A stretch of DNA of 64,000 nt from Tubulanus polymorphus (lineage: Eukaryota > Animalia > Nemertea), in contig NC_134027.1 in assembly GCF_964204645.1 (NCBI RefSeq), positions 19,492,560 to 19,556,559 of the forward strand, in the 5' to 3' direction. Shown one piece after another: positions 9,294 through 64,000 of this stretch. Positions within the stretch are counted from its first letter, which is position 1, and each line of letters begins with the position of its first letter. Both the position numbers and the translations under genes were made by a program. The notes beneath the pieces are model-generated. The model was not told the origin of the DNA and searched no databases. It saw only the letters and a program-made list of their open reading frames with translations.

Positions 9294-9363
9294 AGTAATT
9301 GTAAAAGTGGGGTTTCATACCAGAGTACTAGAGTACTAAACACCACTCATCACCACAAGTAAT
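9294..9363 (+). repeat. P1 left terminal inverted repeat
   Basis: Reverse complement of 26180-26249. Confidence 0.95.
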
Positions 9364-9670
9364 AATTCAATTGAGTATGAGACACCACTCATCACAGCTA
9401 GGCTCTAGTGAGAACGGACGATTGCTCTGTGACACACATATACAGTGAGTGCGCGTAACAACATCTGCGCGTGGATTGATCGATACAGTGAGTCTCTACT
9501 GAGAACGGTTATTAACGCGTGTGCTATTACTGTAGTACAGTGATTGCGTGTCAACTGTACCCGGATAAATAGATGCTGTGAGGCTTGGGTGAGAACGGTT
9601 AATAGCGCGCTTGTTATATAGGGGGAAGTAATCCCCACTCATTACCACAAGTAATTTTTTTTCCTTATAA

Positions 9671-9886
9671 ATGGAAAGGAATGATGAATACAATAAAAAA
9701 CTTATGTGGGGTTGGAAAAATTTACGGCCTTTAGAAAAGAAAGAAAATCAAATCAAATCTAATAAACTAGATTTACAGTTATATTTAGAACAGTTAACAA
9801 AGGCAAAGAAATTTATTGAATTATGGAACAATGATCCAAATAATGAACAATACGTTGAGGAATTTGATATCAAGGAACCGAAATGA
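9671..9886 (+). CDS. P1 hypothetical 71-aa protein
   Basis: TAAATG start behind the same ~105-bp leader as ORF 10022. Confidence 0.65.
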   Translation: MERNDEYNKKLMWGWKNLRPLEKKENQIKSNKLDLQLYLEQLTKAKKFIELWNNDPNNEQYVEEFDIKEPK

Positions 9887-10021
9887 CTTATCTAGACAGT
9901 TATAATTACTGCTCCTAATAGATGCTGTGAGGCTTGGGTGAGAACGGTTAATAGCGTGTTTGTTATATACAAGGGGAAGTAATCCCCACTCATCACTACA
10001 AGTAATTTCTTTTCCTAATAA

Positions 10022-10348
10022 ATGGGAGATAGAAAAGCATTCTTAGCAACAATAAATAACAGAATAAAACCAGCAAAAAAACAATTTGAAATAAAAAAGT
10101 TAGTTGATGTTACAAAAGAAATTGAACATAAAATATTGAAATTAGAAAAGATAAAAACTAAATATGGAGAGAAAGTATCAGCTAATTTAAGCTACTGTAA
10201 TGTTAGTACATCGCGAGAATTTAAAGTATTTTTACCTGATAAATGGGTTTCATTGAGTACAGAGGAATTAAAAGATTTAGAAGGATTTAAAATAATCTAT
10301 CATGGAAAAAATGAAGACGGCCATCATGATTTAGAAATTGTTGATTAA
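10022..10348 (+). CDS. P1 conserved small protein (possible OB-fold/ssDNA-binding)
   Basis: KKL..TKYGEK..VFLPDKW..YHGKN is shared with 34850-35178 and 53384-53725. Function is inferred only. Confidence 0.75.
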   Translation: MGDRKAFLATINNRIKPAKKQFEIKKLVDVTKEIEHKILKLEKIKTKYGEKVSANLSYCNVSTSREFKVFLPDKWVSLSTEELKDLEGFKIIYHGKNEDGHHDLEIVD

Positions 10349-10539
10349 ATTAAAAAAAATAAATTAATAAAAATAATGAATATCTAGAATCCGAAATGAC
10401 TTATCTGGACAATTTAATTGCTCCGCATAGATGGTGCCATAAACGGCACCCACACAGTGATAGACAAAAGTAGTGAGATATTCAATTAATATTCAATTAA
10501 TTAAAAAAAATTATTTTTTTTGCTTTTTTTCTAAAATAT

Positions 10540-10904
10540 TAATCCATTTTTTTTTATTGTCAATTTTGGAATTTCAGAAGTATTTTCATTTTTAATAGCA
10601 GTTGTTTCAGAATTATTAATATCATGAATTTTATTTGATTTCTTATACCAATTACACCCAATCAAAATGAATACAATTACAAATCCAACTGTAAAATATA
10701 AATATTTATCAAATATTCTATTATCAGAAGGAGTAAAAATAACAATATTTTCACTATTTTTATTGACATTTTTATTATTTTTTCTTTTACAGCTTTTTTA
10801 TATTCTTGTGATTTAATTCCTAATTGCCGAGACCATTCAATTTGTTTCTGTGATCTAGGTTTTTTCTTCACAGTTAATTCTTTCACTTCTTTCACCTCGC
10901 TCAT
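10540..10904 (-). pseudogene. P1 small membrane protein, frameshifted
   Basis: Homologous to intact 36263-36619 and 63212-63556 (KKKPRS.KQI.W plus TM segment). Confidence 0.75.
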
Positions 10905-11441
10905 TTATTATAGAAATATTTTTACTTTCAATATTTGAAAATGTTATAACCCCAGTTGATAATAATGTCATAAATCCGCCTAATTGAAATGATAAATATC
11001 CAATCCATTTATTTAATTCAGTCATAACTAAATAGTCATTTTTTAAATCGGAATATAATCTATTTTCATCTTCAATTGCTAGTATATAATTACATAATTT
11101 ACTATAACCTTTTACTACATTTTCTGATATCGCGTCATTAATTCTAGCTGTTCTCGCGGTTTCATAAATCTTAAATAATCTAATAATTTCATCTGATTTC
11201 ATTGTATCTAGTTCATTATAAGTTAAATTTTTACCGACAAATTTTTACATTTTCCAGATGCTATTAATATTTCTAATTGATGTTTACAATAAAGATAATA
11301 TTCATAATTATTATTTGTTGTAACATTATTTAAAGCACCATCATCTGGAATTAATTTGTTTTCTGTTATTCCTAAATCATCTAAAGTTTTTTCAATTGGA
11401 ACATCACCATTTTTAGTTTTTATTTTCTTTTCACCTACCAT
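10855..11441 (-). pseudogene. P1 conserved hypothetical protein with hydrophobic C-terminus, frameshifted
   Basis: ORFs 11223-11441 and 10855-11202; homologs at 36528-37158 and 63549-64000. Confidence 0.75.
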
Positions 11442-11457
11442 TTATATAACAAATAAA

Positions 11458-11735
11458 TTAGTTGTGTTGTTGCAACTAGAATTCAACTAGAATGTAAATA
11501 GAATTCAACTAGATTAACAAGCTAGTTGAAATATTGTTGTTTTTATTTATTTCTTGTTAAATCTAGTTAATTTTTGTTCCAACTACTAATAACTAGAATT
11601 CAACTAGAACGTAACTAGAATTAAACTAGATTAACAAGCTAGTTGAAATATTGTTAAATCTAGTTGATTTTTATTCCAACTACCAATAACTAGAATTCAA
11701 CTAGAATTCAACTAGATTAACAAGCTAGTTGAATT
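11458..11735. repeat. Intergenic AACTAG/CTAGTT repeat array of P1
   Basis: Three units of aactagaattcaactagaa..aactagattaacaagctagttgaa; also present in P2 at ~37177-37478. Confidence 0.9.
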
Positions 11736-12343
11736 TAAATAAATTCATATTTAAATGGGTGTTGTAATATAAATAGTAATTTTGATCTTTTAATATTTTT
11801 CAACTTATCCATATATTCATTATGTAAATCATGTGGAATAATATCATTTTCCACAAGTGCATTTTTCATCGATTTTCTATCTTTATTGTAGAATAAAACT
11901 AGAAATCTAATGTTTTCTCTAAAGTCTTTAACAATTGAATTATATTTTTGATTTAAAACCCAAGTTGTTATCCCAAAATGTCTGCCAGAAAAAGCTAAAT
12001 AGCATAACTCACTTTCTCTAACTTTTGAATCATGTAGATTAGCACAATCATCTATAATGAATAATGTATTTGATCCTTTATAAATATCAATTGCTATTTT
12101 AATACAATTATCTAAATTTTCTTTTACTGTATTAGGATCTAATATAATAAATTTATTATTCCTAGTAATATTTCTATCATAAGTTTGATTAAATTCATAT
12201 GTTGGACAAAATGATACTATATTATCAAAATAGTTTTCATAAACAGTTTCTAATAAATTTAATATAAAATAAGTTTTTCCACAATTTGTTACACCAGAAA
12301 TTAACATATTATGAGGCTCAAATATGAATAATTCCTTATTCAT
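11735..12343 (-). CDS. A32-like (FtsK-HerA) packaging ATPase
   Basis: Walker A GVTNCGKT, Walker B FIIDD, GRHFGI and NQKY motifs. Confidence 0.93.
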   Translation of the reverse strand: MNKELFIFEPHNMLISGVTNCGKTYFILNLLETVYENYFDNIVSFCPTYEFNQTYDRNITRNNKFIILDPNTVKENLDNCIKIAIDIYKGSNTLFIIDDCANLHDSKVRESELCYLAFSGRHFGITTWVLNQKYNSIVKDFRENIRFLVLFYNKDRKSMKNALVENDIIPHDLHNEYMDKLKNIKRSKLLFILQHPFKYEFI

Positions 12344-13472
12344 TTATATATTTTTAATTTTACTTGATAATATCCATTCATTGAATTTATCCGGCCATCC
12401 AACCCATTTTACTAAAGAATATTTTTTTCTTTTAATAGTTTTTGTTTTTAATACTTTTTCAATTTTTATTTTCTTGTTCTAGATTTTCAGTAGTTAAACT
12501 CAATTCTTCTTCATTAAAACACCCATCAACTTCTTCGCCATTTAAATCTTCTAATTTATAGACATATGGTTTTGTTGTTATTACCTTTTTTATTTTATAT
12601 ATTTCTCTAGTAAAATTTCGATCGTATCCTTTATCAAATATCTTTTTATACTTAGAAATTCTAACATTTTGACCAACTTTAAATTTAGGTTCACCAAAAT
12701 CATCTACAAGAAATGCTGCATATAAATTATTCCAAACAATTTCAGCATTTTCAGGTTTTCTAGCATCAATAGGTTTCATTCCAATAGAAGAATGATAAGA
12801 ATTATTATATCCTTCTATCAATTCTGGTAAAACATCAATCCATTTAAAAGTATTATTTGCTGTAAAATATTTCCACATTCTTGTTCTTAATGTTCTATTA
12901 AATCGTTCAACAACTGCTGCTTTTTTATCCGATTTTGTTGAAAAATATTCAATATTATGATTATCTAAGAGTTCATGAACAAGTGAATTATCAAATTCTT
13001 TTCCATCATCAAATTGTATTTTTTCTGGTTTTAGTTTATCATCCGAAAGAAATTTTCTTAAAACATTTGATGTTTGTACAGCATCTTTTCTATAAAGTGG
13101 GAAATTCCATACATAACGACTAAAAATATCAATTATATTCAATAACCACCAATAATCATCATTATCTTTCTTAACATTTTTCATATCAATTAAATCTCCT
13201 TGCCACTGTTGATCTACATAACTTACCATAGTTTTACGAGTTTTATATTTTCTAACAATTTTTTTATGTGTTGTGTATGTTGGTTGTTCTAACATAAATT
13301 CATTTATATCTTTATATTTAACTAAATTGTGTGGGATTATCTTATCTAATTTATCTTGTTTTACTTTACGCCATTTATTTTTAGTAGAAGAATAAGCAAC
13401 CGAACTCTCAGGGTTGTAATATAAATTTCTTAAATATTGTTCTTTAGTATTAGGAGTTTTTTTACCTCCCAT
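12344..13472 (-). CDS. Retroviral-like (rve) integrase with C-terminal chromodomain (frameshift near 12465)
   Basis: QWQGDLIDM, IDIFSRY, QFDDGKEF, VERFNRT; the chromodomain VKWVGWPDKFNEW lies in the shifted frame. Confidence 0.93.
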
Positions 13473-13502
13473 TTATATATCGTTAATTTTAACTTTATAT
13501 TT

Positions 13503-14656
13503 CTAATATTGAATACTATCTAACTGTGAATTTACAATATTTAATTGTGCATCAGATATAATATAAATGTGGATTTTAAAATTTTTGTCTCCTCTTTTCT
13601 TTTTTATGAATAATTGTATTCCATCTTTAGTGTTCTGTAGTTTTTTCCCAGAACCATGTAATGAATTATCCTCTGTTGTTCTAAAATCTAACCATAATGC
13701 ATATTTATTGCCGGTATAATAATCAATTTGATTAATATTACAATTTTCAAATGATTTTACTTTTTCATTCATAAAATGTTTTCTAATTTCTGGCCACTGA
13801 TCTATCATTCTCATTCCTTGACAAAATATTTTATTTGCTATTCCTTCGATAGTTATTTCTACTTTTGTTATTTCAGGATTATAATAATTATCTACCTTTA
13901 TTGCACCATTAGAATATGTTGCAATTTTAAATTTATCAATATAATCATATAATAATGAAAATCCTTGATTGTATTGAGTTTGAATTATACTAGCAATATT
14001 TTCATTAGTTACTGTGTTATATTCTAAACATATATTCGATAATTTATAACCCATATCTTTAACAACGCTAGATAACACAATTTCATTTACAGGAGCAAAT
14101 GTTATCTCAAATATAATATCTTCTTGAATTACATATTTATATAAAGGTGCATTATTATTTATCAATTCAAAGTCTAATGGAATTTTATATTTGCTTCCAT
14201 AAATCTTTTTAACAAATTATCTGTGGCACGAGTTACTATTGCGTCATTAGCTCCTGATCTTAATTTATTATGGTTTTCTGATTGGATGCCTTGAAATATC
14301 ATATTATTTCTATTTTCTTTAGTTAACCATAAATCTTTATAATGCATAAATAAATTATAATCATCTAATGAAAAAACTGTTTCTGGACCAATCTTTATAG
14401 TTAATTTTTTAATCAAATATCTTCCAACATTATCAACAACATAATTATTATCATGACCGGTTACTTTTATATCGGCTGATAAATAAATACTATTTGGAAC
14501 ATAAAAAGTATTTTGTGTTAATCGAGGGATTCTAACATATAAAGTTTCATCGGGATTAATATTTGAAGGATTATGAGTAATTATATTATGTGATCTTTCT
14601 GCTTTAATAGCATTAGATATTCTAGAAATCTTAGGACTTATATAACCCCCACTCAT
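13503..14656 (-). pseudogene. Major capsid protein (probable double jelly-roll), frameshift plus 30-aa in-frame deletion
   Basis: Beta-rich ~415-aa family (ITHNPSNI..NVGRYLIKKLTIKIG). Lacks TVTINANDEIINENINFPRRSIKGILIFFT, which is present in P3. Confidence 0.75.
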
Positions 14657-14679
14657 TTATTTAACAAAAAAATTAATTA

Positions 14680-16125
14680 TTAATTTTTTATTATTTTTTT
14701 CTTGATATTTTTTGATATCATATTCACTAACCCTAAAATAATAGCACTTACAACTGTAATTAAAAATAAAATAATATGTTCAGCAGCAAAGTTAAGAATA
14801 TTACCTGCAGATTTCAATATAAAACCAACAATTGATGCAATAATTCCTGGTAAAGCTGCAGCAGATTTTTTAGATAGTTCCCATAAATATTTTGCTAATT
14901 TCTTTAAACCATCTTTAACTTTATCTTGTATAGAATTATTATTCGGGGGTTTATCTGGTTTATTTGGAGTAGGAGTAGATTTTAAAGCATTTGATATTGC
15001 TAAACCAATTGTTGTAAATAACATAGTTACAGCTGTTATAATTGAAAGAATTGTTATTCCTTCTAACTTAAATAATAATTTTATTCTATCTTTCAATGAT
15101 ATTTCAGAATTTGGTTTTATCAATAAATCTTTAAAAATAACTTTTAATCTATTAATATTATAATCATATGATTTTAATAATAATTTAATTTCTTCTTTCT
15201 GTACTTCTAAATTATCTTTTAAATTATTAATTTCTTAATTCGTAATTCTTTTTGCCTATACTCTATTTCATCAATTACTTGATGATCTAAATCAGACTTT
15301 AGTTGTTCTATTTCTTTATTTGCATTAGTTAATTCTTTTTCCAAATACATAATTTTTTGATCTCTTATACTTTTATTATGTTCAATTTTATCAGCTTCAT
15401 TTCTTATACTAATAATTTCTCTAATTGCTTCATCAGAAAATATATCTAAATCTTCTAATTCTTGATCTGTTGCATCAATTAATCCATTCGGTAAAAGTTT
15501 TTCAATTGAAACTTTATTTGATTTAAGGTTACTATTTTTGGAAGTTATATTCTGTTCAAAAGTTGTTTCTGTTTTTGATTTCTTTTTGATTATTTCAAAT
15601 AATTCATTAATTCTTTGTTTAAATACGTCTATATTATCATCTCTTTCTTTTTGTGTAACATCAGTTTTTTTATTACTATTACTTATTCTTTTAATTCTCT
15701 GGATCTAAGTCACTCAAAGTTGATTCCGCTAATATTTTTTTTAGTTTTGTCCTTTGATTAGTGATATCAATATAATAATCACCTTTCAAACGATAATAAC
15801 ATTTACCATTATCTAAAAATTTTAATTGATATGCTAAAAGACCAACGTCTTCATCATTTATATTAAGATTAGAATTTTCAATTATACGTTCTAATTTTGG
15901 CATTTTGTTTAAATTATCTAAATTTTCTTGTACTAAACCTGGGTTTAAATTTTCAGGATTTAATTGTGATTCTGCATTTTTAATATAATCAGGCATATTT
16001 AAATTATTATTATATCCTGGCTCATTACCGTCATTAAAACTTGTTTCATCAAAATCAGGTGGTGGTTGTTCATCACTTATACCAGGTTCATCAAAAGGAT
16101 CCATTCCAAAATCTTCTACATCCAT
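14680..16125 (-). pseudogene. Coiled-coil protein with C-terminal TM helices, frameshifted
   Basis: Homolog of intact 57419-59107. Confidence 0.8.
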
Positions 16126-16139
16126 TTATATAAAAAAAA

Positions 16140-17469
16140 TTAAAATTTAAAATATAATATTCCTCCTATAACAATTCCTATACAAGTTAAAGCTAATTTA
16201 GTATTTTCATGGGATTTATTATCATCATTTAGTTTAATTATATCATGTTGAATATTATCAGTTCTAATATTTTCTGATGTATTATAATCCGGTTTAGAAT
16301 CATTATTTAATTTAATATTATTAGTTTTAGTTTCTGTTGATTGAATATGTTTTTCATTTTTTTCACCTTCCATTAATTTTGGAGCAGTAATTATCTTTTT
16401 ATTTATATCATTAAATCCAACTGAATGATTTATTGTTGCAGTTTTAATTGGATTATTATAACCAATTATGTTTCCCATCTTTAATACTAAATCATTAGAA
16501 ATAATAAATAGATTAGGGCCTATACAATAATTTAATCTAATATGTGATTTATCTAAATAATTTTGATATCTTACAATGTTTTCTGGAATCGAACTATTTT
16601 TATCATTATGAATGGAATCTTCAAATAATACTTTAAATTGTTTCTGCGCGTCAAATGAAGTACTATCATTTCCAACTATTGGTGATCTTGTTTCAACTTG
16701 CGCACCTAAAATACATATCAAATAAGTTCTAATAGATTGATTTATTCTTTGTATACCAGCTTTAGTAAAACCTTCGCTATTTTCTAAAATGAAATTAACC
16801 CAACCATTATTATTTTGTTGTTGTATATTATTATAATATTTTGGTAATTCATTCCAATTTAGTGTTCTTATATCTGTATTTATCATTATTTTTCCAAATT
16901 CTTTAGTATACAGTACTCCTAATCCACCCATTGTTCCAATTTTTGCTCTAAAATCTTTATTTGAATTAATATTAAATTCATTACATATTTTATAAAACTT
17001 AGAAAGATTAATGTTATTATCTAATTCTTTAAAATATCTAGACCCTGGTAAAGGCCATTCTAATTCATCTATTATTAATTTTATTTTATTATTATATTTA
17101 AGTATGAAATCTAAAAAGTGATAATATTAATGGTAAACTTGGTTTGTTTAAATGATCATTCCAACTAATTCCACATCCTGTTGTTGCGCAATAAACAGCA
17201 AAATTTAATTGGTTCTACCAATACTTCATATTAGATTTTAATAACCATTGTTTTGCCTCATTTAAATCTTTAAAATTAATTGTATACACATGAAATATAT
17301 TTTCCATCCTTACATGGAAATTATTACTTTCAGTAACATAAATATATAAATCAATTAATGAATTTAAAACTACATTTTTATGTGTAATATCTTTATTAAA
17401 ATCTATTGCTTGAATATTATATTTAATTGATTTATTATATTGGAAAGCTTTTGGAAAACTATCTACCAT
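16140..17469 (-). pseudogene. Conserved protein with C-terminal TM anchor, disrupted
   Basis: Homolog of intact 56014-57402. Confidence 0.8.
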
Positions 17470-17485
17470 TTATATAATTAAAAAA

Positions 17486-17924
17486 TTAATAATTTATTAA
17501 TTCTTTTAATAATTTATCTTGTTCTTCAACTGTTATATGACCATTTAAACTTATGATATAATCTAGTGTGTTCTTTAATTTATTAATTTCTTTTATATTA
17601 GTTTTAATTTTTTCTTTATTACTTTTTACATTCAATTTTGAACTTATACCAGTTAAAACACTTGAACTTAATCCTAATACACCAATTGATATAGCTAAAG
17701 GTGTTAATGGACTGAATATTGCTAGAAATGTTATTACAGAACTAATTGTAACCGAACCACTTATATATAATCAAATAATATATAATTTTACTTTTTAAAT
17801 ATTTTTTCTTTTTTATCTTTAAGTCACTTTCAAATTCTAATATTTGTTTTTCTAAATATGTTTTTAATTTAGTTTTATTTATAACATGAGGAATAATATC
17901 AATATTATCAACTTTATCTTCCAT
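17486..17924 (-). pseudogene. Two-TM small membrane protein, frameshifted
   Basis: Homolog of 55563-55997. Confidence 0.8.
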
Positions 17925-17943
17925 TTATTTAGAAAAAAAATTA

Positions 17944-18366
17944 CTAATTAGTAAATTTATATGCTACAAATATAACAATAACTGTTCCACCTAAAATCCA
18001 TATTATTTCATATTTCTGTTGTTCTTTACTTGGGGTATAATAATCTGATAATTTAGGTTTGTATAGATGTAATTTTTCTTTATTGGTTACCGCGTTATAT
18101 AAACTCATTGCATCATCAACTGATAGAAAATCTCTATGTGAAATATTCTGATCAATTAATTCTTTATTGATGTAATCCATATAGTTTTGCCTCTTTTCTC
18201 TATATTCTTCAGTTGCTTTATTGTATTCCTCTGATGCTAAGTTATGTCTTTTTTGTTCTGATAATGAACCATTTTCATCAATTTGCTTGAATAAAAAATT
18301 ACCACCTGTAAATGCCAAAGCGTTAACAATTGCTGATCCTATAATAGTTATAACTGCAGAAGCCAT
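17944..18366 (-). CDS. Conserved 140-aa protein with hydrophobic termini
   Basis: Homolog of 55121-55543; TAAATG start. Confidence 0.85.
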   Translation of the reverse strand: MASAVITIIGSAIVNALAFTGGNFLFKQIDENGSLSEQKRHNLASEEYNKATEEYREKRQNYMDYINKELIDQNISHRDFLSVDDAMSLYNAVTNKEKLHLYKPKLSDYYTPSKEQQKYEIIWILGGTVIVIFVAYKFTN

Positions 18367-18390
18367 TTATTTAGCAAAATAATTACGCAT

Positions 18391-18612
18391 TTATATGGGA
18401 GGAATATATTTTTGTTTTTCTAAATAATCAATAGTTAAATTAGATAAAGTAACTGCTAACGTTAATTTTAAAATATCATTTATATCAAATCTATCAACAT
18501 TAACACTACCCATTTTAAATACTTTTTTTAATACCATTGAATAACCAACAGTTCCAACTGATAGTAATGCTCCATTATATAATCCAGTTATTATCCACTT
18601 ATTATCACTCAT
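18391..18612 (-). CDS. Conserved 73-aa hydrophobic protein
   Basis: Nearly identical to 54875-55096. Confidence 0.85.
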   Translation of the reverse strand: MSDNKWIITGLYNGALLSVGTVGYSMVLKKVFKMGSVNVDRFDINDILKLTLAVTLSNLTIDYLEKQKYIPPI

Positions 18613-18969
18613 TTATTTATCAAAAAAATTACTATCATCAAAATATTTAGTTATCTTAGTGATGATTAATTCAACATTTATTTCATTACTAGTTTCATTT
18701 GTATATATTTCAATTATTATTTTTTTAATATCATCGATGATAAAATCTTCATCTAATTCATAAAATCTTAAAGATTCTCTAATTAAATTAGTAATCTTTT
18801 CTACATTTAAAGTTTCTTTATCTATTGTTGTTTCATACTCAAATGTTGTTTCATTAGAAAATGCAATATTTTTGATATGTGTAATTACATCATTAATGTT
18901 AAATTTCATTTCTTTCTCATGTTTAAAATCAAACCCAAAACATATACTCGGTCCAACAGATATATTCAT
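18613..18969 (-). CDS. Conserved 118-aa hypothetical protein
   Basis: Homolog of 54515-54874. Confidence 0.8.
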   Translation of the reverse strand: MNISVGPSICFGFDFKHEKEMKFNINDVITHIKNIAFSNETTFEYETTIDKETLNVEKITNLIRESLRFYELDEDFIIDDIKKIIIEIYTNETSNEINVELIITKITKYFDDSNFFDK

Positions 18970-18985
18970 TTATATAGTGAAAAAA

Positions 18986-53383: not shown

Positions 53384-53725
53384 ATGGAGAGTAAACAAGT
53401 ACACAGTGAATTCTTAGATAGAATTAAAGATACTTCAAGCGTCAAATCTGTAGATTATAAATTCAAAAAGTTAACAGAATTAACAATTCACAAGAAATAT
53501 TTAATTACTAACATTGAAACAATTACTAATAAATATGGAGATAAATTAATAATTCATTTAGAATATGAAGGATTAAAAGGAAATAAATATAAATTCAGAA
53601 CATATTTACCAGATAGATTTCATAGATTATCAAGTGAAGATCTAGAAGAATTATGTTCTGGAGATTTCTATTTCGTATACAAAGGTAAGAATGAAAAAGG
53701 GCACCATGAAATAGATTTCGAATAA
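53384..53725 (+). CDS. P3 small conserved protein (possible OB-fold)
   Basis: Divergent homolog of 10022-10348. Confidence 0.75.
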   Translation: MESKQVHSEFLDRIKDTSSVKSVDYKFKKLTELTIHKKYLITNIETITNKYGDKLIIHLEYEGLKGNKYKFRTYLPDRFHRLSSEDLEELCSGDFYFVYKGKNEKGHHEIDFE

Positions 53726-53742
53726 GAAAATATATAAAATAA

Positions 53743-54498: not shown

Positions 54499-54514
54499 TT
54501 TTTTTGATATATAA

Positions 54515-54874
54515 ATGAATATAACTGTTGGACCAAGTATATGTTTTGGATTTGATTTTAAACATGAGAAAGAAATGAAATTTAATATTAATGATGTAAT
54601 TACACATATCAAAAATATTGCATTTTCTAATGAAACAACATTTGAGTATGAAACAACAATAGATAAAGAAACTTTAAATGTAGAAAAGATTACTAATTTA
54701 ATTAGAGAATCTTTAAGATTTTATGAATTAGATGAAGATTTTATCATCGATGATATTAAAAACATATTATCCAAAATATATGATAATCATAAAACTAGTA
54801 ATGAAATAAATGTTGAATTAATCATAAATAAGTTAACTAAATATTTTGAAGATAGTAATTTTTTTGATAAATAA
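54515..54874 (+). CDS. P3 119-aa hypothetical protein
   Basis: Homolog of 18613-18969. Confidence 0.8.
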   Translation: MNITVGPSICFGFDFKHEKEMKFNINDVITHIKNIAFSNETTFEYETTIDKETLNVEKITNLIRESLRFYELDEDFIIDDIKNILSKIYDNHKTSNEINVELIINKLTKYFEDSNFFDK

Positions 54875-55096
54875 ATGAGTGATATTAAGTGGATAATAAC
54901 TGGATTATATAATGGCGCATTACTATCAGTTGGAACTGTTGGTTATTCAATGGTATTAAAAAAAGTATTCAAAATGGGAAGTGTTAATGTTGATAGATTT
55001 GATATAAATGATATTTTAAAGTTAACATTAGCAGTTACTTTATCTAATTTAACTATTGATTATTTGGAAAAACAAAAATATATTCCTCCCATATAA
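54875..55096 (+). CDS. P3 73-aa hydrophobic protein
   Basis: Homolog of 18391-18612. Confidence 0.85.
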   Translation: MSDIKWIITGLYNGALLSVGTVGYSMVLKKVFKMGSVNVDRFDINDILKLTLAVTLSNLTIDYLEKQKYIPPI

Positions 55097-55120
55097 ATAC
55101 ATAATTTTTTTGCTAAATAA

Positions 55121-55543
55121 ATGGCTTCTGCAATTATAACTATTATAGGATCAGCAATTGTTAACGCTTTAGGATTTACTGGTGGTGGTTATTTATTTAA
55201 ACATATTGATAAAAATAGTTCATTAGGAGAACAAAGAAGACATAACTTAGCGTTAGAGAAATATAATAAAGCTGCAGAAGAATATAGAGAAAAGAGACAA
55301 AACTATATGGATTACATCAATAAAGAATTATATGATCAGAAGATTTCACACAGAGATTTTCAATCAGTTGATGATGCAATGAGTTTATATAACGCAGTAA
55401 CCAATAAAGAAAAATTACATCTATACAAACCTAAATTATCAGATTATTATACCCCGAGTAAAGAACAACAGAAATATGAAATAATTTGGATTTTAGGTGG
55501 AACTGTTATTGTTATATTTGTTGCTTATAAGTTTACTAATTAG
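55121..55543 (+). CDS. P3 140-aa membrane-associated protein
   Basis: Hydrophobic N- and C-termini; homolog of 17944-18366. Confidence 0.85.
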   Translation: MASAIITIIGSAIVNALGFTGGGYLFKHIDKNSSLGEQRRHNLALEKYNKAAEEYREKRQNYMDYINKELYDQKISHRDFQSVDDAMSLYNAVTNKEKLHLYKPKLSDYYTPSKEQQKYEIIWILGGTVIVIFVAYKFTN

Positions 55544-55562
55544 TAATTTTTATTCTAAATAA

Positions 55563-55997
55563 ATGGAAGATAAAGTTGATAGTATTGATATTATTCCTCA
55601 TGATATAAATAAAACTAAATTAAAAACATATTTAGAAAAACAAATATTAGAATTTGAAAGTGACTTAAAGATAAAAAAGAAAAAATATTTAAAAAGTAAA
55701 ATTATATATTATTTGATTATAAGTGGTTCGGTTACAATTAGTTCTGTAATAACATTTCTAGCAATATTCAGCCCATTAACACCTTTAGCTATATCAATTG
55801 GTGTATTAGGATTAAGTTCAAGTGTTTTAACTGGTATAAGTTCAAAATTAAATATAAAAAGTAATAAAGAAAAAATAAAATCTAATATAAAAGAAATTAA
55901 TAAATTAAAGAACACACTAGATTATATAATAAGTTTAAATGGTCATATAACAGTTGAAGAACAAGATAAATTATTAAAAGAATTAATAAATTATTAA
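55563..55997 (+). CDS. P3 144-aa two-TM protein
   Basis: Central hydrophobic hairpin between helical segments. Confidence 0.85.
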   Translation: MEDKVDSIDIIPHDINKTKLKTYLEKQILEFESDLKIKKKKYLKSKIIYYLIISGSVTISSVITFLAIFSPLTPLAISIGVLGLSSSVLTGISSKLNIKSNKEKIKSNIKEINKLKNTLDYIISLNGHITVEEQDKLLKELINY

Positions 55998-56013
55998 TTT
56001 TTTAATTATATAA

Positions 56014-57402
56014 ATGGCAGATAGTTTTCCAAAAGCTTTCCAATATAATAAATCAATTAAATATAATATTCCAGCAATAGATTTTAATAAAGATATTACA
56101 TATAGAAATGAAGTTTTAGATTCATTAACTAATTTAGAAATTTATGTTACTGAAACTAATAATTTTAATGCAAAGATGGAAAATATATTTCATGTATATT
56201 TAATTAATTTTAAAAAATTGAAAGATGAAAAACAATGGTTATTAAAATCTAATATGAAGTATTGGCAGAACCAATTAAATTTTGCTGTTTATTGTGCAAC
56301 AACAGGATGTGGAATAAGTTGGAATGATCATTTGAATAATTCTAAATATAAACTAATTCAAAGTTTATTTAGATTTCATACATACTTTCAAATCAGAATA
56401 ATATTAAATGAATTAGAGTGTGCTTTACCAGGATCTAGATATTTTAAAGAATTAGATAATAATATTAATTTATCAAAGTTTTATAAAATTTGTAATGAAT
56501 TTAATATAGATATAAATAATTCTGATTTTAGAACAAAAATTGGAACAATAAGATCACTTCCTTGCCCTAAAAAGATTGCAGAATATTGTGCACTTCCCAT
56601 ACCATCTAATAGTTTTTATAATATCTATAATAAAAAATTAGGTTATGGTAAAATAGAAACAAAGGATTTAGAAACATTAAATTTCAATAAATTACCAAAA
56701 TTTTATGATAATTTAAAACAAGAAAACAATAATGGTTGGGTTTATTTTATTTTAGAAAATAGTGAAGGTTTTACTAAATCAGGTATAGAAAGAATAAATC
56801 AATCTATTAGAACTTATTTGATTTGTATTCTAGGATCACAAGTTGAAACAAGATCACCGATAATTGGAAATTTGAATACATCATTCGATGCGCAGAAACA
56901 GTTTAAAGTTTTATTTGAAGATTCAATTCATAATGATAAAAATAGATCGATTCCAGAAAACATTATAAGATATCAAAATTATTTAGATAAATCTCATGTA
57001 AGACTTAATTATTGTATAGGCCCTAATCTATTAATTATTTCTAATGATTTAGTATTGAAGATGGGAAACATAATTGGTTATAATAATCTAATTAAAACTG
57101 CAACAATAAATAATTCATTTGGATTAAATGATATAAATAAAAAGATTATTACTGCTCCAAAATTAATGGAAGGTGAAAAAAATAAAAAACATATTCAATC
57201 AACAGAAACTAAAACTAAGAATATTAAATTGGATAATGATTCTAAAATAAAAGATTACAATACATCAGAAAATAATAGAACTGATAAAATTCAACATGAT
57301 ATAATTAAACTAAATGATGATAATAAATCCCATGAAAATACTAAATTAGCTATAACTTGTATAGGAATTGTAATCGGAGGAATATTATATTTTAAATTTT
57401 AA
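56014..57402 (+). CDS. P3 462-aa conserved protein with C-terminal TM anchor
   Basis: WQNQLNFAVYCATTGCG core; LAITCIGIVIGGILYF tail. Confidence 0.88.
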   Translation: MADSFPKAFQYNKSIKYNIPAIDFNKDITYRNEVLDSLTNLEIYVTETNNFNAKMENIFHVYLINFKKLKDEKQWLLKSNMKYWQNQLNFAVYCATTGCGISWNDHLNNSKYKLIQSLFRFHTYFQIRIILNELECALPGSRYFKELDNNINLSKFYKICNEFNIDINNSDFRTKIGTIRSLPCPKKIAEYCALPIPSNSFYNIYNKKLGYGKIETKDLETLNFNKLPKFYDNLKQENNNGWVYFILENSEGFTKSGIERINQSIRTYLICILGSQVETRSPIIGNLNTSFDAQKQFKVLFEDSIHNDKNRSIPENIIRYQNYLDKSHVRLNYCIGPNLLIISNDLVLKMGNIIGYNNLIKTATINNSFGLNDINKKIITAPKLMEGEKNKKHIQSTETKTKNIKLDNDSKIKDYNTSENNRTDKIQHDIIKLNDDNKSHENTKLAITCIGIVIGGILYFKF

Positions 57403-57418
57403 TTTTTTTATTATGTAA

Positions 57419-59107
57419 ATGGATGTAGAAGGTGGAGAAAATATTCCATTGGATGACATGGGAAATGATAATGAAGGATATATTGATGATGATTATAATG
57501 ATGCAGGTGCTAATATTGATAATAATGATGAATCAGCATATAATACTAATTTAGGTGAAGATGATGATTATGATGATGGAATTAATACCGAAGTACGTGA
57601 AAAAATAAATAAATATTTAGAAGCTCTTGAAAGTGGTAAAATTTCAACTAGAACAGAAAGAAAAGAATTCATGGAACTATTAGTAAAACAAGAAGAAAAA
57701 TATCCTAATGAACGTTTGGAATTATATAAAATGAAATCTAGAGTAACAGATACAATTGTTAACGAATTACTACCAATAGCTCTAATACATGAAATTGATC
57801 CAAAAGGTGTTGTAGAACAAATTTTGAAAGATGACCCATATTTCATGAATAATTTAGAATTTAAAAATGATGCATGGTATTATAATCTTGATTTAAATAA
57901 CAAAATTGTATCAATTCAATTATCTAAAATGGGTCAAGAAAATATTTATGAACCTGAAATGCGAGCATTATCTACAATTGAACATTCAAAAGGTGGCACA
58001 GAATTTCTCAGAATTATATGGAATGCACTCGATAGAATAAATGAAAAAGAACCAATTCCTAAAATTGATATAAACAAATATTCACCATTTAAAAATCCAT
58101 TTAAAAATCCAAATCCAAATCCTACTGATTTTGATCCAGAAATGGAAGAGAATAGAAATCGATTAGATGGATTAAGATCTTCAACACCCGAAACATCTAG
58201 AAGAGACACTCAACAAATTGATAATGATTCAAGTAAATTACAATTAGAAAAACAAATTGATAGATTAAGAGATTCAGAAGAACTGATGAATAGTGCTGGA
58301 ATAAATCGAATACAATCTTTACTAGAAAAAGGATTATTTGATTTAACTGATGATGAATTAGAAGCATTTCCTGAACAAGCACGTAGAGAAATTAAAGGTA
58401 TGCAAGAATCAGCTGATAAAATTGCGCATGAAAAAAGTAAAAGAGATATTAAAATTAGATTTTTAGAAAAAGATAGAACTGATAAAAATAAAGAAATAGA
58501 ACAATTAAAATTAGATAGAGATAATAAAGTTATTGAAGAAATTGAATTTAAAAAAAGAAATGCATATTTAGAAAAAGAAATTGATGATTTAGAATATAAC
58601 ATAGAATTACAAAAAGAAGAAATTAAATTATTATTAAAATCATATGATTATAATATTAATAGATTAAAAGTTATTTTTAAAGATTTGTTGATTAAACCAA
58701 ATTCTGAAATATCATTAAAAGACAGAATAAAGTTATTATTTAAATTAGAAGGAATAACAATTCTTTCAATTCTAACATCTGTTACTATGTTATTTACAAC
58801 AATTGGTTTAGCTATATCAAATGCTTTGAAATCTACTCCTACTCCCAATAAACCAGATAAACCCCCAGGTAATAATTCTATACAAGATAAAGTTAAAGAT
58901 GGTTTAAAGAAATTAGCAAAATATTTATGGGAACTATCTAAAAAATCTGCTGCAGCTTTACCAGGAGTTATTGCATCAATTGTTGGTTTTATATTGAAAT
59001 CTGCAGGAAACATTATTAACTTTGCTGCTGAACATATTATTTTATTTTTAATTACAGTTGTAAGTGCTATTATTTTTAGTTTAGTGAATATGATTAAAAA
59101 TAAATAA
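57419..59107 (+). CDS. P3 562-aa acidic/coiled-coil protein with C-terminal TM helices
   Basis: Intact ORF; hydrophobic segments near the C-terminus. Confidence 0.88.
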   Translation: MDVEGGENIPLDDMGNDNEGYIDDDYNDAGANIDNNDESAYNTNLGEDDDYDDGINTEVREKINKYLEALESGKISTRTERKEFMELLVKQEEKYPNERLELYKMKSRVTDTIVNELLPIALIHEIDPKGVVEQILKDDPYFMNNLEFKNDAWYYNLDLNNKIVSIQLSKMGQENIYEPEMRALSTIEHSKGGTEFLRIIWNALDRINEKEPIPKIDINKYSPFKNPFKNPNPNPTDFDPEMEENRNRLDGLRSSTPETSRRDTQQIDNDSSKLQLEKQIDRLRDSEELMNSAGINRIQSLLEKGLFDLTDDELEAFPEQARREIKGMQESADKIAHEKSKRDIKIRFLEKDRTDKNKEIEQLKLDRDNKVIEEIEFKKRNAYLEKEIDDLEYNIELQKEEIKLLLKSYDYNINRLKVIFKDLLIKPNSEISLKDRIKLLFKLEGITILSILTSVTMLFTTIGLAISNALKSTPTPNKPDKPPGNNSIQDKVKDGLKKLAKYLWELSKKSAAALPGVIASIVGFILKSAGNIINFAAEHIILFLITVVSAIIFSLVNMIKNK

Positions 59108-59127
59108 TTAATTTTTTTGTTAAATAA

Positions 59128-60377
59128 ATGAGTGGGAGTTATATCAATCCTTCTAAGAATCATAGAATATCTAATGCTATTAAAGCAGAAAGATCACATC
59201 ATATAATTACTCATAACCCTTCAAATATTAATCCCGATGAAACTTTATACGTTAGAATTCCTAGATTAACACAAAATACTTTTTATGTTCCAAATAGTAT
59301 TTATTTATCAGCTGATATAAAAGTAATCGGTAATAATAATAATTATGTTGTCGATAATGTTGGAAGATATTTGATTAAAAAGTTAACAATAAAGATTGGT
59401 CCAGAAACAGTTTTCTCATTAGATGATTATAATTTATTTATGCACTATAAAGATTTATGGTTAACTAAAGAAAATAGAAATAATATGATATTTCAAGGAA
59501 TCCAATCAGAAAACCAAAATAAATTAAGATCAGAAGCTAATAGCGCAATATTAACAAATGATGTAGATAAATTGATAAAAAGTATATATGGAAGCAAATA
59601 TAAAATTCCATTAGACTTTGAATTGATAAATAATAATGCACCTTTATATAAATACGCAATTCAAGAAGATGTTATATTCGAAATAACATTTGCTCCTGTA
59701 AATGAAATTGTAATATCTAGCGTTAATAAAGATATGAGTTATAAATTATCGAATATATGTTTAGAATATGATACAGTAACTGATGAAAATATTTCAAGTA
59801 TAATTCAAACTAAATACAATCAAGGATTTTCATTATTATATGATTATATTGATAAATTTAAAACTGTAACTATTAATGCAAATGATGAAATAATAAATGA
59901 GAATATTAACTTTCCTAGAAGATCTATTAAAGGTATATTAATATTTTTTACTATTGGAACGTATACTAATGGCGCAATAAATGTTGATAATTATTATAAT
60001 CCTGAAATAACAAAAGTAGAAATAACTATCGAAGGTATAGCGAATAAAATATTTTGTCAAGGAATGAGAATGATAGATCAATGGGTAGAAATTAAAAAAC
60101 ATTTTATGAATGAAAAAGTAAAATCATTTGAAAATTGTAACATTAATCAAATTGATATTATTATACCGGTAATAAATATGCATTATGGTTAGATTTTAGA
60201 ACAACTGAAGATAACTTATTACATGGTTCTGGAAAAAAACTACAGAACACTAAAGATGGAATACAATTATTCATGATAAAGAAAAAAGGAATCAAAAATT
60301 TTAAAATGCACATTTATATTATATCTGATGCGCAATTAAATATTGTAAATTCACAATTAGATAGTGTTATGTATTAA
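59128..60377 (+). CDS. P3 major capsid protein (frameshift ~60160)
   Basis: ORF 59128-60192 plus shifted C-terminus KYALWLDFRT..LDSVMY. Confidence 0.78.
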
Positions 60378-60409
60378 AATTGTAACTTTAATAAAAATAT
60401 ATATAATAA

Positions 60410-61357
60410 ATGGAAGGAGGTAAAGTATATAAACATATTCCATACATCGATACACATGAAAATAATGATGGTTTATATTATGTAATACCTTGTAATATAG
60501 CTTTGATATTTGATCCTATTTTTAGAAATTATAAAACTAAACTGATAGAAATCGATAATAATAAAAGTGGTGTTGTTAATAATAGTGTAATTGATAATAA
60601 TGTAATACCTACTACTACATCTGTAATACCTACTACTACATCTGTAATACCTTCTACATCTGTAATACCTACTACATCTGTAATACCTACTACTACATCT
60701 GTAATACCTACTACATCAAATAATGTAATACCTTCTACATCTAATAATGCAATAATATTAAATGTTAGTGAAAATAGAAATTATTGTGGTTATTGTAATG
60801 GTGAATTTTCAAACGCTCCATCAAATTGGAATAAACATATGAATACAAATTCACATATTACTAATGTTATAGAACGTGTTGGTTTAAAAGAATTTATAGA
60901 ACACCCATTTAGATATGTTACAAAGTTTGTTTCAAATAAAAAAGTAAATGGTAAAGAATTATATGAAGATTTTTTATTAACAACACCTAATAAAGATGAA
61001 TTAGATTTAACTGATGCTAATGAAATATTAGGATCAAACACTGTAAATGAAATATTAGGAGCAAACACTAATAAAGATGATAATGAAAATGATGCCATAC
61101 ACCCACATGATGATATAGTTACAGTTAAACATATTGATAATAAAGATTCTATAAAACTTAAAGTAGAAAATAATGATAAATTTGATTGGATGAATAAGTT
61201 TAAAAATGAAACAACTATTGATGATTTGGTAAAAAAGGTGAAAAAGGTGAAAAAAAATTATAAAGATGTTGATGTAGATTCGGTAGAGCATTTAAATATG
61301 TTGTTAGCGTCTGATAGTGAAAGTGATTCAGAAATTGATTATCTAAAACTCGAATAA
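60410..61357 (+). CDS. P3-specific protein with VIPT(T)TS repeats and one C2H2-like Zn finger
   Basis: 18/21-bp tandem repeats at ~60600-60740; YCGYC..WNKHMNTNSH. Confidence 0.8.
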   Translation: MEGGKVYKHIPYIDTHENNDGLYYVIPCNIALIFDPIFRNYKTKLIEIDNNKSGVVNNSVIDNNVIPTTTSVIPTTTSVIPSTSVIPTTSVIPTTTSVIPTTSNNVIPSTSNNAIILNVSENRNYCGYCNGEFSNAPSNWNKHMNTNSHITNVIERVGLKEFIEHPFRYVTKFVSNKKVNGKELYEDFLLTTPNKDELDLTDANEILGSNTVNEILGANTNKDDNENDAIHPHDDIVTVKHIDNKDSIKLKVENNDKFDWMNKFKNETTIDDLVKKVKKVKKNYKDVDVDSVEHLNMLLASDSESDSEIDYLKLE

Positions 61358-61424: not shown

Positions 61425-61493
61425 TAGGGTATCAGGTATTAGGGTATCAGGTATTAGGGTATCAGGTATTAGGGTATTAGGTATTAGGGTATC
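61425..61493 (+). repeat. 15-bp tandem repeat TAGGGTATCAGGTAT (~4.6 copies)
   Basis: Seen directly between convergent genes. Confidence 0.92.
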
Positions 61494-61515
61494 TAATACA
61501 TAGGTATACAAATAG

Positions 61516-62127
61516 TTATTTTATAAATTTATATTCATATGGAAATTGTAATCTCATAAGTAATTTGGAACCTTTATTATTTTTTAATTTATTCATATAC
61601 TCATCGTGTAATTCAGTAGGTATAATTTGATTTTCTTCCAATGATTGTTGCATAGATTTTCTATCTTTGTTGTAGAATAAAACTAGAAATCTTATATTCT
61701 CTCTAAAATCTTTCACAATTGAATTATATTTCTGATTTAAAACCCAAGTTGTTATCCCAAAATGTCTACCAGAGAAAGCTAAATAACATAACTCACTTTC
61801 TCTAATTTTAGAATCATGTAAATTTGCGCAATCATCAATAATAAATAATGTATTTGATCCTTTATAAATATCTAATGCAATTTTTATACAATTATCTAAA
61901 TTTTCTTTTACTGTTTTAGGGTCTAATATAATAAACTTTTTTATCTTAACTATATCTCTATTATATGTTTTATTCATTTCATAAGTAGGACAGAATAATA
62001 TTATATTATCAAAATGATTCTTATAAATAGTTTCTAACAAATCTAATATGAAATGTGTTTTACCACAATTGGTTACTCCAGTAACTAACATATTATGCGG
62101 TTCAAATATAAATAAATCTTTATTCAT
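61516..62127 (-). CDS. P3 A32-like packaging ATPase
   Basis: GVTNCGKT, FIIDD, GRHFGI. Confidence 0.93.
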   Translation of the reverse strand: MNKDLFIFEPHNMLVTGVTNCGKTHFILDLLETIYKNHFDNIILFCPTYEMNKTYNRDIVKIKKFIILDPKTVKENLDNCIKIALDIYKGSNTLFIIDDCANLHDSKIRESELCYLAFSGRHFGITTWVLNQKYNSIVKDFRENIRFLVLFYNKDRKSMQQSLEENQIIPTELHDEYMNKLKNNKGSKLLMRLQFPYEYKFIK

Positions 62128-63208
62128 TTATTCTTTTAATTTTACTAGATAAAATCCATTCATTAAATTTATCATCATATCCTTTATATTTCACCAAAGA
62201 ATACTTTTTTCCTTTAAGAGTTTTTGTTTTCAATACTTTTTCTATTTTGTATTCTATTTCATCTGGATTTGGTACTAATGATAATTCTTGTTCATAAAAA
62301 TAACCTAATATTTCTTCATCTTTTAAATCAAACAATTTATAAACAAATGGTTTAGTTAATATTATCTTTTTAATTTTAAATATTTCTTCTGTAAAATTAG
62401 GGGTATAACCTTTATAAAATGTTTTTCGATATTTAGAAATTCTAACATGTTGTCCTATTTTAAATTTAGGTTCTCCAAAATCATGTGTAACAAATGCTCC
62501 ATATAAATTATTCCAAACTATTTCTGAATTTTCTTCTTTTCTAGCTTGTATAGGTTTCATATTTATAGAACTATGTTTAGAATTATTATAACCTTTCATT
62601 AAATCATCTAACACATCGATATATTTATATGTTTCATTAGCAGTAAAATATTTCCACATTCTAGTTTTCAATGTTTTATTAAATCTTTCTATAACAGATG
62701 CTTTTTTATCTGAATGTGTTGAAAAATATTCTACATCGTTATCAGATAATAGTTTTTTAAAATGTTTGTTATAAAATTCTTTACCTTCATCAAATTGTAT
62801 CTTATCTGGAATAGCTTCTTTAAATATTAATTTGAAAACATTTGTTACTTCTATACCAGTTTTATTTTTAATCGGGATACTCCATGCGTATCTACTGAAT
62901 ATATCTATAACATTTAGTATCCAAAAATATCCTTTGTTGTATTCTTCTAAGTTTTTCATATCAATTAAATCTGCTTGCCATTGTTGATCAATATATGAAA
63001 CCATTACTTTTCTTGTTAAATATTTTTTATCCATCTTTTTATGAATTTGATATGTGGGTTGATTTTGTAACCATGATTTTAATTCACTATATTTTATTTT
63101 TTCTTTATCAGATTTAATTTTATCCCATAATTCCGAAACACTTGAATATGATACTTCACTTTCTGGGTTATAATATAACTCTCTTAAATATTGTTCTTTT
63201 TTCATCAT
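62120..63208 (-). CDS. P3 rve integrase with chromodomain, intact
   Basis: QWQADLIDM, QFDEGKEF, IERFNKT, YKIEKVL..VKYKGYDDKFNEWI. Confidence 0.95.
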   Translation of the reverse strand: MMKKEQYLRELYYNPESEVSYSSVSELWDKIKSDKEKIKYSELKSWLQNQPTYQIHKKMDKKYLTRKVMVSYIDQQWQADLIDMKNLEEYNKGYFWILNVIDIFSRYAWSIPIKNKTGIEVTNVFKLIFKEAIPDKIQFDEGKEFYNKHFKKLLSDNDVEYFSTHSDKKASVIERFNKTLKTRMWKYFTANETYKYIDVLDDLMKGYNNSKHSSINMKPIQARKEENSEIVWNNLYGAFVTHDFGEPKFKIGQHVRISKYRKTFYKGYTPNFTEEIFKIKKIILTKPFVYKLFDLKDEEILGYFYEQELSLVPNPDEIEYKIEKVLKTKTLKGKKYSLVKYKGYDDKFNEWILSSKIKRINE

Positions 63209-63211
63209 ATT

Positions 63212-63556
63212 TTAATCCATTAATAATAATTTAGATTTAGTTTCATTTGATTTATTTTCTGGTATAATATGTTTATCATCATCGGAATCATCTTTATCGT
63301 CAGATTTGATTTTATATTTATATATTACACCAGAGAATATAATAACTGTGATTAACCCAATTGTAATATATAATTTATTATTACTTCCAACATTATAAGA
63401 ATTAGATGGATTATTATTTGAATCAATATCAGATTCATTTATATCAGTTAATTTCTTTTTCTTAGCTTTTTTTAATTCTGAAGATCTTTTACCTAATTCT
63501 CTTGCCCATTTAATTTGTTTCTCGGATCTAGCTTTTTTCTTAACTCCATCACTCAT
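63212..63556 (-). CDS. P3 small membrane protein
   Basis: Homolog of 36263-36619. Confidence 0.8.
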   Translation of the reverse strand: MSDGVKKKARSEKQIKWARELGKRSSELKKAKKKKLTDINESDIDSNNNPSNSYNVGSNNKLYITIGLITVIIFSGVIYKYKIKSDDKDDSDDDKHIIPENKSNETKSKLLLMD

Positions 63557-64000
63557 TTATTTTAGTTAATTTTTGTTCTGATTCATTTTCTGTTTCGATG
63601 TTTTGTTGTAGTACATCTGTTTCGTTCTTACCTGATTTATATTCCATAGGCTTGATGTTCGAAAATGTTATGACACCAGTAGAAATTAATGTCATAACCG
63701 ATCCTAATTGAAATGAAACATATCCAACCCATTTTTGTAATTCAGTCATAACTAAATAGTCATTTTTCAAATCATTATATAATTTATTTTCATCATCAAT
63801 TGGTATTAACTGGTTACATAACTTAGAATAACATTTAACAATACCATCACTTATAGAGTCGTTTATTCTAGCTAATCTTGCCTCTTCATAAATTTTAAAA
63901 TATTTTATTACTTTATCGGGTTTCATAGAGTCTAGTTCTTGAAAAGTTATTATTTTTCCTAAGAAGTCCTTAGATTTCCCGCCAGCAATTAATAATTCAA
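63549..64000 (-). CDS. P3 conserved hypothetical protein (5' end outside window)
   Basis: Homolog of 10855-11441. Confidence 0.8.
   Translation of the reverse strand, partial: ELLIAGGKSKDFLGKIITFQELDSMKPDKVIKYFKIYEEARLARINDSISDGIVKCYSKLCNQLIPIDDENKLYNDLKNDYLVMTELQKWVGYVSFQLGSVMTLISTGVITFSNIKPMEYKSGKNETDVLQQNIETENESEQKLTKINE

Follow-up and report, generated by a model that had tools for sequence, protein, structure and literature searches.

Whether animal Polintons can depend on a helper virus for their expression is a question raised by a 64,000-nucleotide stretch of Tubulanus polymorphus DNA (assembly GCF_964204645.1, contig NC_134027.1, positions 19,492,560 to 19,556,559 of the forward strand; the window), which holds three related elements, P1, P2 and P3, of 23 to 24% GC within host DNA of 37 to 39% GC. 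An original prediction took these for satellites of a pox-like helper and described them as very AT-rich and intronless, with TAAATG gene starts, a VLTF3-like gene and an intein in the family B DNA polymerase (PolB). The description held: composition is as stated, and alignment with intact relatives showed frame breaks only, and no intron-size gaps, in the window genes for capsid, PolB and VLTF3. With slightly better than even confidence, we regard the elements as an integrating satellite family transcribed by a pox-like cytoplasmic helper.

TAAATG at gene starts and the signals upstream

TAAATG was found at 34 of the 37 gene starts of the window that are defined by homology, and in the three exceptions TAAAT or TAAAAT lies no more than 6 nt from the ATG. 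All 18 gene families of the window have the motif in at least one copy, whereas only 8.1% of all ATGs in P1, and likewise in P3, are TAAATG. The metagenomic relatives L001 to L007, with capsids 51 to 76% alike, have it at 37 of 40 starts; one of their three misses is an empty row (L005, with TAAATG 4 nt upstream), and the others again have TAAAT or TAAAAT within 6 nt. Since the window copies are not independent, starts were also counted by gene family. By majority, and with the relatives included, TAAATG is present in 22 of 23 families.

Comparison with control elements set the family apart. One mechanical open reading frame (ORF) rule was used across family loci and control sets. By this rule, TAAATG stands at 34 of 39 starts in family loci and at 12 of 142 in sixteen IMG/VR elements with a related protein-primed PolB (pPolB; 28 to 44%). 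These pPolB controls are distant, and only two of them (L013 and L014) resemble insect-type Mavericks, which we take them to be; those two had the motif at 0 of 13 starts. Control element L011, which has the same GC content as the family (22%), had it at 1 of 11. The rule gave 11 of 64 starts in giant-virus loci from metagenome-assembled genomes (MAGs; 33 among the 80 best intein loci). In a stretch of a 232-kb, 18% GC poxvirus-type record, TAAATG stands at 9 of 20 starts; the record carries VLTF3, an A2L ribbon, an NAD ligase and an AP-endonuclease/Pol beta, hallmarks by which we presume it to be of entomopoxvirus type. T at -3 is fixed in the family motif, whereas the pPolB controls favor A there (76 of 142). 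A search of IMG/VR with the exact extended promoter pattern returned only two phage-like chance matches.

A run of at least four T's lies upstream in 15 of 23 gene families, compared with 14 of 77 internal TAAATG sites (p 4e-5), and the commonest spacer between this run and TAAAT is 6 nt. The upstream profile has T at -12 (0.90) and A at -18 and -17 (0.85 and 0.79). Two types of upstream sequence were seen, the T run and an A-rich variant. Of 16 starts in the structural block of P3 and L001, 13 are of T-run type, and the A-rich type occurs at the ATPase, the P1 integrase, the P3 PolB and two other genes; the VLTF3 gene has both features. Vaccinia late promoters are described as having a T-containing core 5 to 7 bp ahead of TAAAT(G/A) (PMC5294985) and a conserved T about 10 nt upstream, while intermediate promoters have an AT-rich block 15 to 19 nt upstream (both PMC11980589). 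At such promoters, transcripts begin within TAAAT, where slippage yields a 5' poly(A) leader (PMC4542343). In sequence, the signals of the family closely resemble the consensus published for late and intermediate promoters of vaccinia: they share TAAAT(G) over the start codon, a T-rich core 5 to 7 nt upstream and an A-rich variant. The difference from vaccinia is that here the motif marks almost every gene, in a 17-kb element without an RNA polymerase. No early-type poxvirus motif was seen near family starts, and counts of T5NT, splice sites and CpG gave no clear signal.

The VLTF3-like gene and the PolB intein

VLTF3 acts with viral polymerases. The VLTF3-like gene of P1 (19813..21128, plus strand) has a broken frame, is colinear with the intact P0122 and starts at TAAATG with A-rich and T-run features. 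The protein has zinc fingers, a zinc ribbon and the VLTF3 helical domain. A direct Pfam scan of it gave no match; in the Atlas, 27 of its 30 matches carry Pox_VLTF3 at 0.96, with a recognition value under the Atlas threshold. HMMER returned four relatives among 1.84 billion representatives, including P0122, which is the intact gene of an L001-type element, and P0125, the only one of the four with a Pox_VLTF3 match. P0125 also has the A2L ribbon and is 63% identical to the VLTF3 of the 232-kb poxvirus record, to which the window protein matches at 38% over 74 aa (profile match, 96.6%). The predicted model of the window protein (pLDDT 83) was ranked against BFVD, where cowpox came first (TMq 0.61), followed by an unnamed entry, two entomopoxviruses and then other nucleocytoviruses, with asfarvirus B385R in 20th place. 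Features, fold, the transitive HMMER link and the profile comparison together identify the protein as a VLTF3 homolog, in agreement with the original prediction. Its best matches indicate that it is probably of poxviral affinity.

Other searches were negative. The VLTF3 domain gave no match in a word-index search, PDB searches with the protein by sequence and by fold gave nothing significant, IMG/VR scans with capsid, VLTF3 and ATPase and a GTDB scan found no relative, and a phage collection searched for P0125 yielded none. The position of the VLTF3 gene differs between P1 and L001, and P3, which has no VLTF3 in its visible part, may carry one beyond the window edge. In L001, a deoxynucleoside kinase gene with a T-run TAAATG start (10340-10981; E 2e-31) adjoins the VLTF3-like gene. 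The longest contig is given as 12,994 bases for a distant VLTF3-like protein (P0124) and also for a 56% capsid relative (P0180), so that the two may share one element.

The P1 intein (21582..22646, minus strand; 355 aa) lies at the D|TDS site of PolB. It has an N-terminal Ser, a C-terminal Asn, Thr at +1, and Hint and LAGLIDADG domains, of which one endonuclease motif looks degenerate. It is lacking in the P3 PolB, and a joint skipping it is present in run X1. Its closest relatives are inteins of other pPolBs (62, 49 and 47%), followed by those of RNA-primed PolBs near 40%. A quick tree of 105 rows (matches aligning over less than 300 aa excluded; noisy motif labels; host classes from Pfam) placed it with pPolB-type proteins in an eight-member clade (support 99) whose neighbors are giant-virus-type and T4-like polymerases. 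Giant-virus MAG contigs made up 33 of the 80 best IMG/VR intein loci, including all of the top 17. The original prediction had listed the intein, called giant-virus-type, among the signs of a pox-like helper. It is real, and the occurrence of its type in both giant-virus MAG contigs and T4-like phage polymerases speaks for contact with large DNA viruses, not with poxviruses. The same intein family occurs at D|TDS in at least seven other pPolB-type proteins (among P0002-P0010 and P0013-P0017) and also in giant-virus-type PolBs, T4-like PolBs and topoisomerase II. A literature search found no description of inteins in Polinton polymerases.

Anatomy and gene content of the elements

P1 is a complete Polinton-type element of 16,956 bp (9294..26249). 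Its left terminal inverted repeat (TIR; 9294..9363, plus strand; 70 bp) starts AGTAAT and is a 100% inverted match to the right TIR (26180..26249, minus strand), which is followed without a gap by the T run and the TAAATG start of PolB. The promoter cassette of the TIR recurs ahead of three different genes. A 6-bp target-site duplication (TSD), ATTTGG, bounds the element at 9288-9293 and 26250-26255, and the insertion point is the 3' end of a long interspersed element (LINE)-like reverse transcriptase (RT) frame, with an RT-like frame on both flanks. The empty site (joint of 9287 to 26250) is present in two public runs, X1 and X2, which shows that the insertion is recent and polymorphic. GC-richer subterminal sequence with repeated blocks lies at 9364-9670 and 9886-10021. 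An exact tandem duplication of 474 bp (25915..26862; 100% identity), comprising the right end of P1 and 140 bp of flank, is likely an assembly artifact or a local duplication.

P2 (34766..48867) is a disrupted P1-type element, consisting of a left TIR and pieces at 34766-35204, 36080-40647 and 47158-48867, and is truncated by P3. Nested in it is a BEL/Pao long terminal repeat (LTR) retrotransposon that is not a family member (40648..47157, minus strand); its LTRs are 99.3% alike, its 5-bp TSD is ACAAT, and it is young, with long open frames. P3 (48868..64000) belongs to a second subfamily and is represented by its left 15 kb up to the window edge, in which there is no intein. Its terminus is confirmed by run X4, where six unlike flanks precede 48868. 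The left end forms an imperfect palindrome of 386 bp (48868..49253), with a DNA fold of -102 kcal/mol versus -23 +/- 3 kcal/mol for 30 mononucleotide shuffles; both arms end in the terminal AGTAAT, as in a hairpin-forming terminus or a mini-element. P1 and P2 are about 92% alike across most of their shared length, and P1 and P3 are 74 to 91% alike, depending on the block, with the ATPase-integrase block of P3 flipped relative to the capsid block. Frameshifts or stops occur in all three copies, a fact that the original prediction left out together with the fragmentation of P2 and the departure of P3 from the window. The family genes are under purifying selection, with dN/dS of 0.04 to 0.49 across 14 gene pairs. 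Summed contig depth of the family, which is not a copy number, is far above that of the flank and suggests that the family is present in many copies.

At the left of P1, a 71-aa ORF with a TAAATG start (9671..9886, plus strand) is likely the remnant of an HNH endonuclease gene, being 55% identical over 51 aa to a 171-aa L002 protein that has a weak HNH match. A conserved 108-aa ORF follows, also starting at TAAATG (10022..10348, plus strand; 74% to L001; dN/dS 0.38), which we take to be possibly an OB-fold protein. The minus strand carries an A32-like packaging ATPase gene with an open frame, TAAATG and A-rich upstream sequence (11735..12343; Pox_A32 E 8e-12) and an rve integrase gene with TAAATG whose frame breaks before the chromodomain end (12459..13472; rve E 5e-10). 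Next to these are the double-jelly-roll (DJR) major capsid gene, in pieces, with TAAATG and a T run (13503..14656; weak Capsid_N match; colinear with the intact P0159), and a block of six conserved genes, several broken, all with TAAATG and a T run (14680..18969). Two genes of the block are large and encode predicted membrane ends, one is SLATT-like (weak matches) and three are small. A 251-aa ORF (18986..19744, minus strand; start context TAAATAATG) has only a weak DUF5901 match (E 0.004) and, from its size and position, likely encodes the minor capsid (penton) protein. The pPolB gene (21128..26164, minus strand) is in several frames, starts at TAAATG, matches DNA_pol_B_2 (E 2e-8) and is colinear with P0002. 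The intact capsid relative sits among DJR clusters in the Atlas, and 98 relatives of the family capsid were found. Capsid relatives (55%) of the P0203 cluster are entered in databases as hypothetical proteins of Bartonella, on contigs measuring 0.5 to 1.6 kb, probably as contamination from an animal host.

In P3, a broken pPolB gene (49336..53355, plus strand) starts at TAAAATG with A-rich upstream sequence. It is followed by ten plus-strand genes (53384..61357), every one with a TAAATG start, encoding in order a 113-aa ORF, the likely penton, products of 119, 73 and 140 aa, a SLATT-like product of 144 aa, products of 462 and 562 aa, the major capsid protein and a product of 315 aa. The major capsid gene begins at 59128 and is broken near its end. 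The A32 ATPase gene (TAAATG) and the rve integrase gene with a chromodomain (TAAAATATG) are both open frames on the minus strand (61516..63208; Pox_A32 E 1e-11, rve E 4e-9, Chromo E 8e-5). Tandem arrays adjoin the end of the ATPase gene in each element, at 11420-11733 (11-nt), 37138-37485 (114-nt) and 61425-61504 (15-nt).

No adenain/Ulp1 cysteine protease was found among 41 window proteins or the ORFs of the relatives, although divergent forms could escape. Pfam, NCBIfam and PHROG gave no match to poxvirus RNA polymerase subunits among family ORFs, and no window protein or relative matched virophage capsid or protease families. The predicted fold of the 442/462-aa family protein reached a pLDDT of only 31, and an Rfam scan of the window gave no match. 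The host DNA includes a Myb/SANT ORF (33424-33912) and what we take to be a THAP-like motif (2900-3083); both, like the Pao and LINE sequences, are in keeping with an animal host.

A proposed helper-dependent cycle, its alternatives and known systems

An element without an RNA polymerase must borrow one, and the initiator, the upstream spacing and VLTF3 together indicate a pox-like cytoplasmic enzyme. A satellite of this kind would use its own, virion-borne integrase to place copies in the nucleus, where they would stay silent until a helper infects. Expression and replication would take place in the cytoplasmic factory of the helper, which would supply the RNA polymerase. Transcripts would begin within TAAAT and acquire a 5' poly(A) leader by slippage. 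T-run promoters, on most structural-block genes, would be of late type, and A-rich promoters (ATPase, P1 integrase, P3 PolB and others) would be of intermediate type. The VLTF3 of the element may redirect the helper polymerase to its own promoters or compete with the factor of the helper. Precedents are the Polinton-like viruses (PLVs) in entomopoxvirus occlusion bodies (PMC11296320) and the helper-matched promoters of EMALEs (10.1101/2025.10.09.676808). We infer this virophage-like cycle as slightly more likely than not. The promoter argument of the original prediction has gained strength, given a clade-wide motif, a T run at vaccinia spacing and a VLTF3 nearest to poxviral ones, and the dependence on a helper remains putative. 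The analysis lent no support to the antiviral reserve that the original prediction had suggested, and the three copies are broken; a protective effect on the host is no more than a possibility. The fuller picture of an endogenous "poxvirus virophage" clade in invertebrates, silent until a helper triggers a two-stage intermediate and late program, equipped with a captured poxviral late factor and blunting infection, is one that we put forward tentatively and think somewhat doubtful.

Several observations weigh against a pox-like helper. No helper sequence was found, although no whole genome was searched for one. Ordinary RNA-seq shows expression of coral polintoviruses, some of which carry VLTF3 (PMC11131425), and poxviruses have been described from vertebrates and arthropods only (PMC6831550). 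Many copies and polymorphic insertions require repeated germline access. Comparison of the upstream profile with the one from the poxvirus control showed no correlation (r 0.11, p 0.6, from only 9 starts), and the division into late and intermediate types has exceptions, since the P1 PolB and the kinase have T runs and the P3 penton is A-rich. In the fold ranking, the margins are small (E 6e-7 to 3e-5 versus 4e-5 to 5e-4 for other nucleocytoviruses), the query was trimmed to a pox-like length and one of the top four matches is the unnamed entry. The nearest non-Polinton hosts of the intein are giant-virus MAG contigs and T4-like polymerases. AATAAA is undepleted on family coding strands (4 to 5 per kb; 0.2 in the Pao element), but it is depleted in no control set either, and an AT-rich element without TAAATG has 5.3 per kb, which makes this test weak. 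Run X5, guessed to be RNA, yielded 3 partial scraps only and is no evidence either way.

That TAAATG merely reflects stop-start coupling or AT content is already largely refuted and barely tenable. Coupling accounts for the 73-aa gene of P1 and P3, where TAA is the stop of the upstream gene, and for some ATPase copies, including that of L001, and it was rejected as a general cause: most starts have gaps or no same-strand upstream gene (VLTF3, PolB, kinase and first genes), and the 8% background and the 1 of 11 starts in L011 speak against composition. An autonomous nuclear Polinton is an improbable alternative of more substance. Here host Pol II would transcribe the genes, TAAATG would be a compact promoter or start signal peculiar to the family, and the element would use VLTF3 as an activator of its own. 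Such an element would fit the integration, the chromodomain integrase, and the abundance and polymorphism of the family, the coral polintoviruses expressed without a known helper (PMC11131425), and the fact that TATAAAT is also a TATA-box consensus (PMC5294985). However, by Pol II geometry a TATA box over the ATG would start transcripts inside the ORF (PMC5294985). The T fixed at -3 is unlike the controls, the gaps between family genes are often just 3 to 25 nt, and the AATAAA density argues weakly in the same direction. The viral polymerases with which VLTF3 generally acts also speak against it.

A different cytoplasmic helper, whether a nucleocytovirus (asfarvirus-like or of another kind) or a linear plasmid of the cytoplasm that encodes its own polymerase, seems to us a little less probable again. 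The intein common to giant-virus MAG contigs would suit it, as would the bipartite, AT-rich late promoters of African swine fever virus and the TAAAAT initiators of yeast virus-like elements (PMC6831550, PMC5294985), and the sequence at many starts is TATATAAATG, in which the asfarvirus late TATATA is included (PMC11788076). Set against these are the low TAAATG count of giant-virus MAG starts, the rank of B385R behind poxviruses in first, third and fourth place, and the presence of the intein in other pPolBs and in phages, so that it may be an older, separate gain. It is quite unlikely that the promoters are relics of an ancestral helper-dependent life, in a family that now spreads as a transposon and is expressed only by leakage. 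In line with a relic, each of the three copies is broken and the visible part of P3 has no VLTF3, but the motif is kept in genes at a synonymous divergence (dS) of 0.6 to 0.8 and in relatives with 51% capsid identity, purifying selection acts on the genes, and surplus TAA triplets are retained after a genuine stop.

If a pox-like helper does transcribe the family, the virophage strategy extends to integrating elements of animals, pox-like viruses are implied for an animal from which perhaps none have been described, and the logos of Polinton promoters in animals would predict unseen helper viruses. A family-wide pox-type promoter also makes a sharp, cheap prediction, namely, 5' poly(A) leaders inside TAAAT and a reporter that responds to poxvirus only. 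The literature searched, mostly from non-subscription journals, described no animal Polinton that combines an integrase with pox-type promoters, although supplements may list related elements. Two parts of the picture are known from earlier work, namely animal Polintons that carry VLTF3 and PLVs associated with poxviruses. The original prediction was right to credit the latter to earlier work (entomopoxvirus occlusion bodies; PMC11296320), and its claim that an own transcription factor would be new falls with the VLTF3 homolog of coral polintoviruses (PMC11131425). VLTF3 is also present in a MELD virus (PMC8502044) and in PLV groups including Zephyr PLVs (10.64898/2026.06.19.733378).

Among known systems, the coral polintoviruses resemble the family as animal-integrated Polintons with a VLTF3 homolog; the word "promoter" has 0 occurrences in that source (PMC11131425). 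The entomopoxvirus PLVs AHEV_PLV1/2, CBEV_PLV1 and Ca_PLV1 are likewise proposed poxvirus parasites, small DJR viruses with terminal repeats, and differ, as compared by description only, in having no rve integrase (none detected, or a tyrosine recombinase); the main text describing them makes no mention of promoter, TAAAT, VLTF or intein (PMC11296320). The family shows one mark of a satellite lifestyle, helper-type promoters on its genes, and its upstream profile did not match the entomopox one. Mavirus and EMALE virophages and the Tetraselmis PLVs share integrated copies with helper-type late promoters, and Mavirus also has rve and pPolB; they differ in their protist hosts, other helpers and motifs, the virophage capsid, and a reactivation that has been shown for them (10.1101/2025.10.09.676808). 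The adenain/Ulp1 protease typical of most group 1 Maverick-Polintons was not found, and the complete P1 without a detected cysteine protease differs from Maverick-Polintons and adintoviruses also in its TAAATG promoters, its intein and a capsid without an IMG/VR relative. With them it shares TIRs starting AG, a 6-bp TSD, pPolB and rve, an A32 ATPase, a DJR capsid and an animal host (PMC8502044, 10.64898/2026.06.19.733378), and the TIRs with their TSD, the pPolB with rve, and the ATPase with the DJR capsid are features that place the family in Polintoviricetes.

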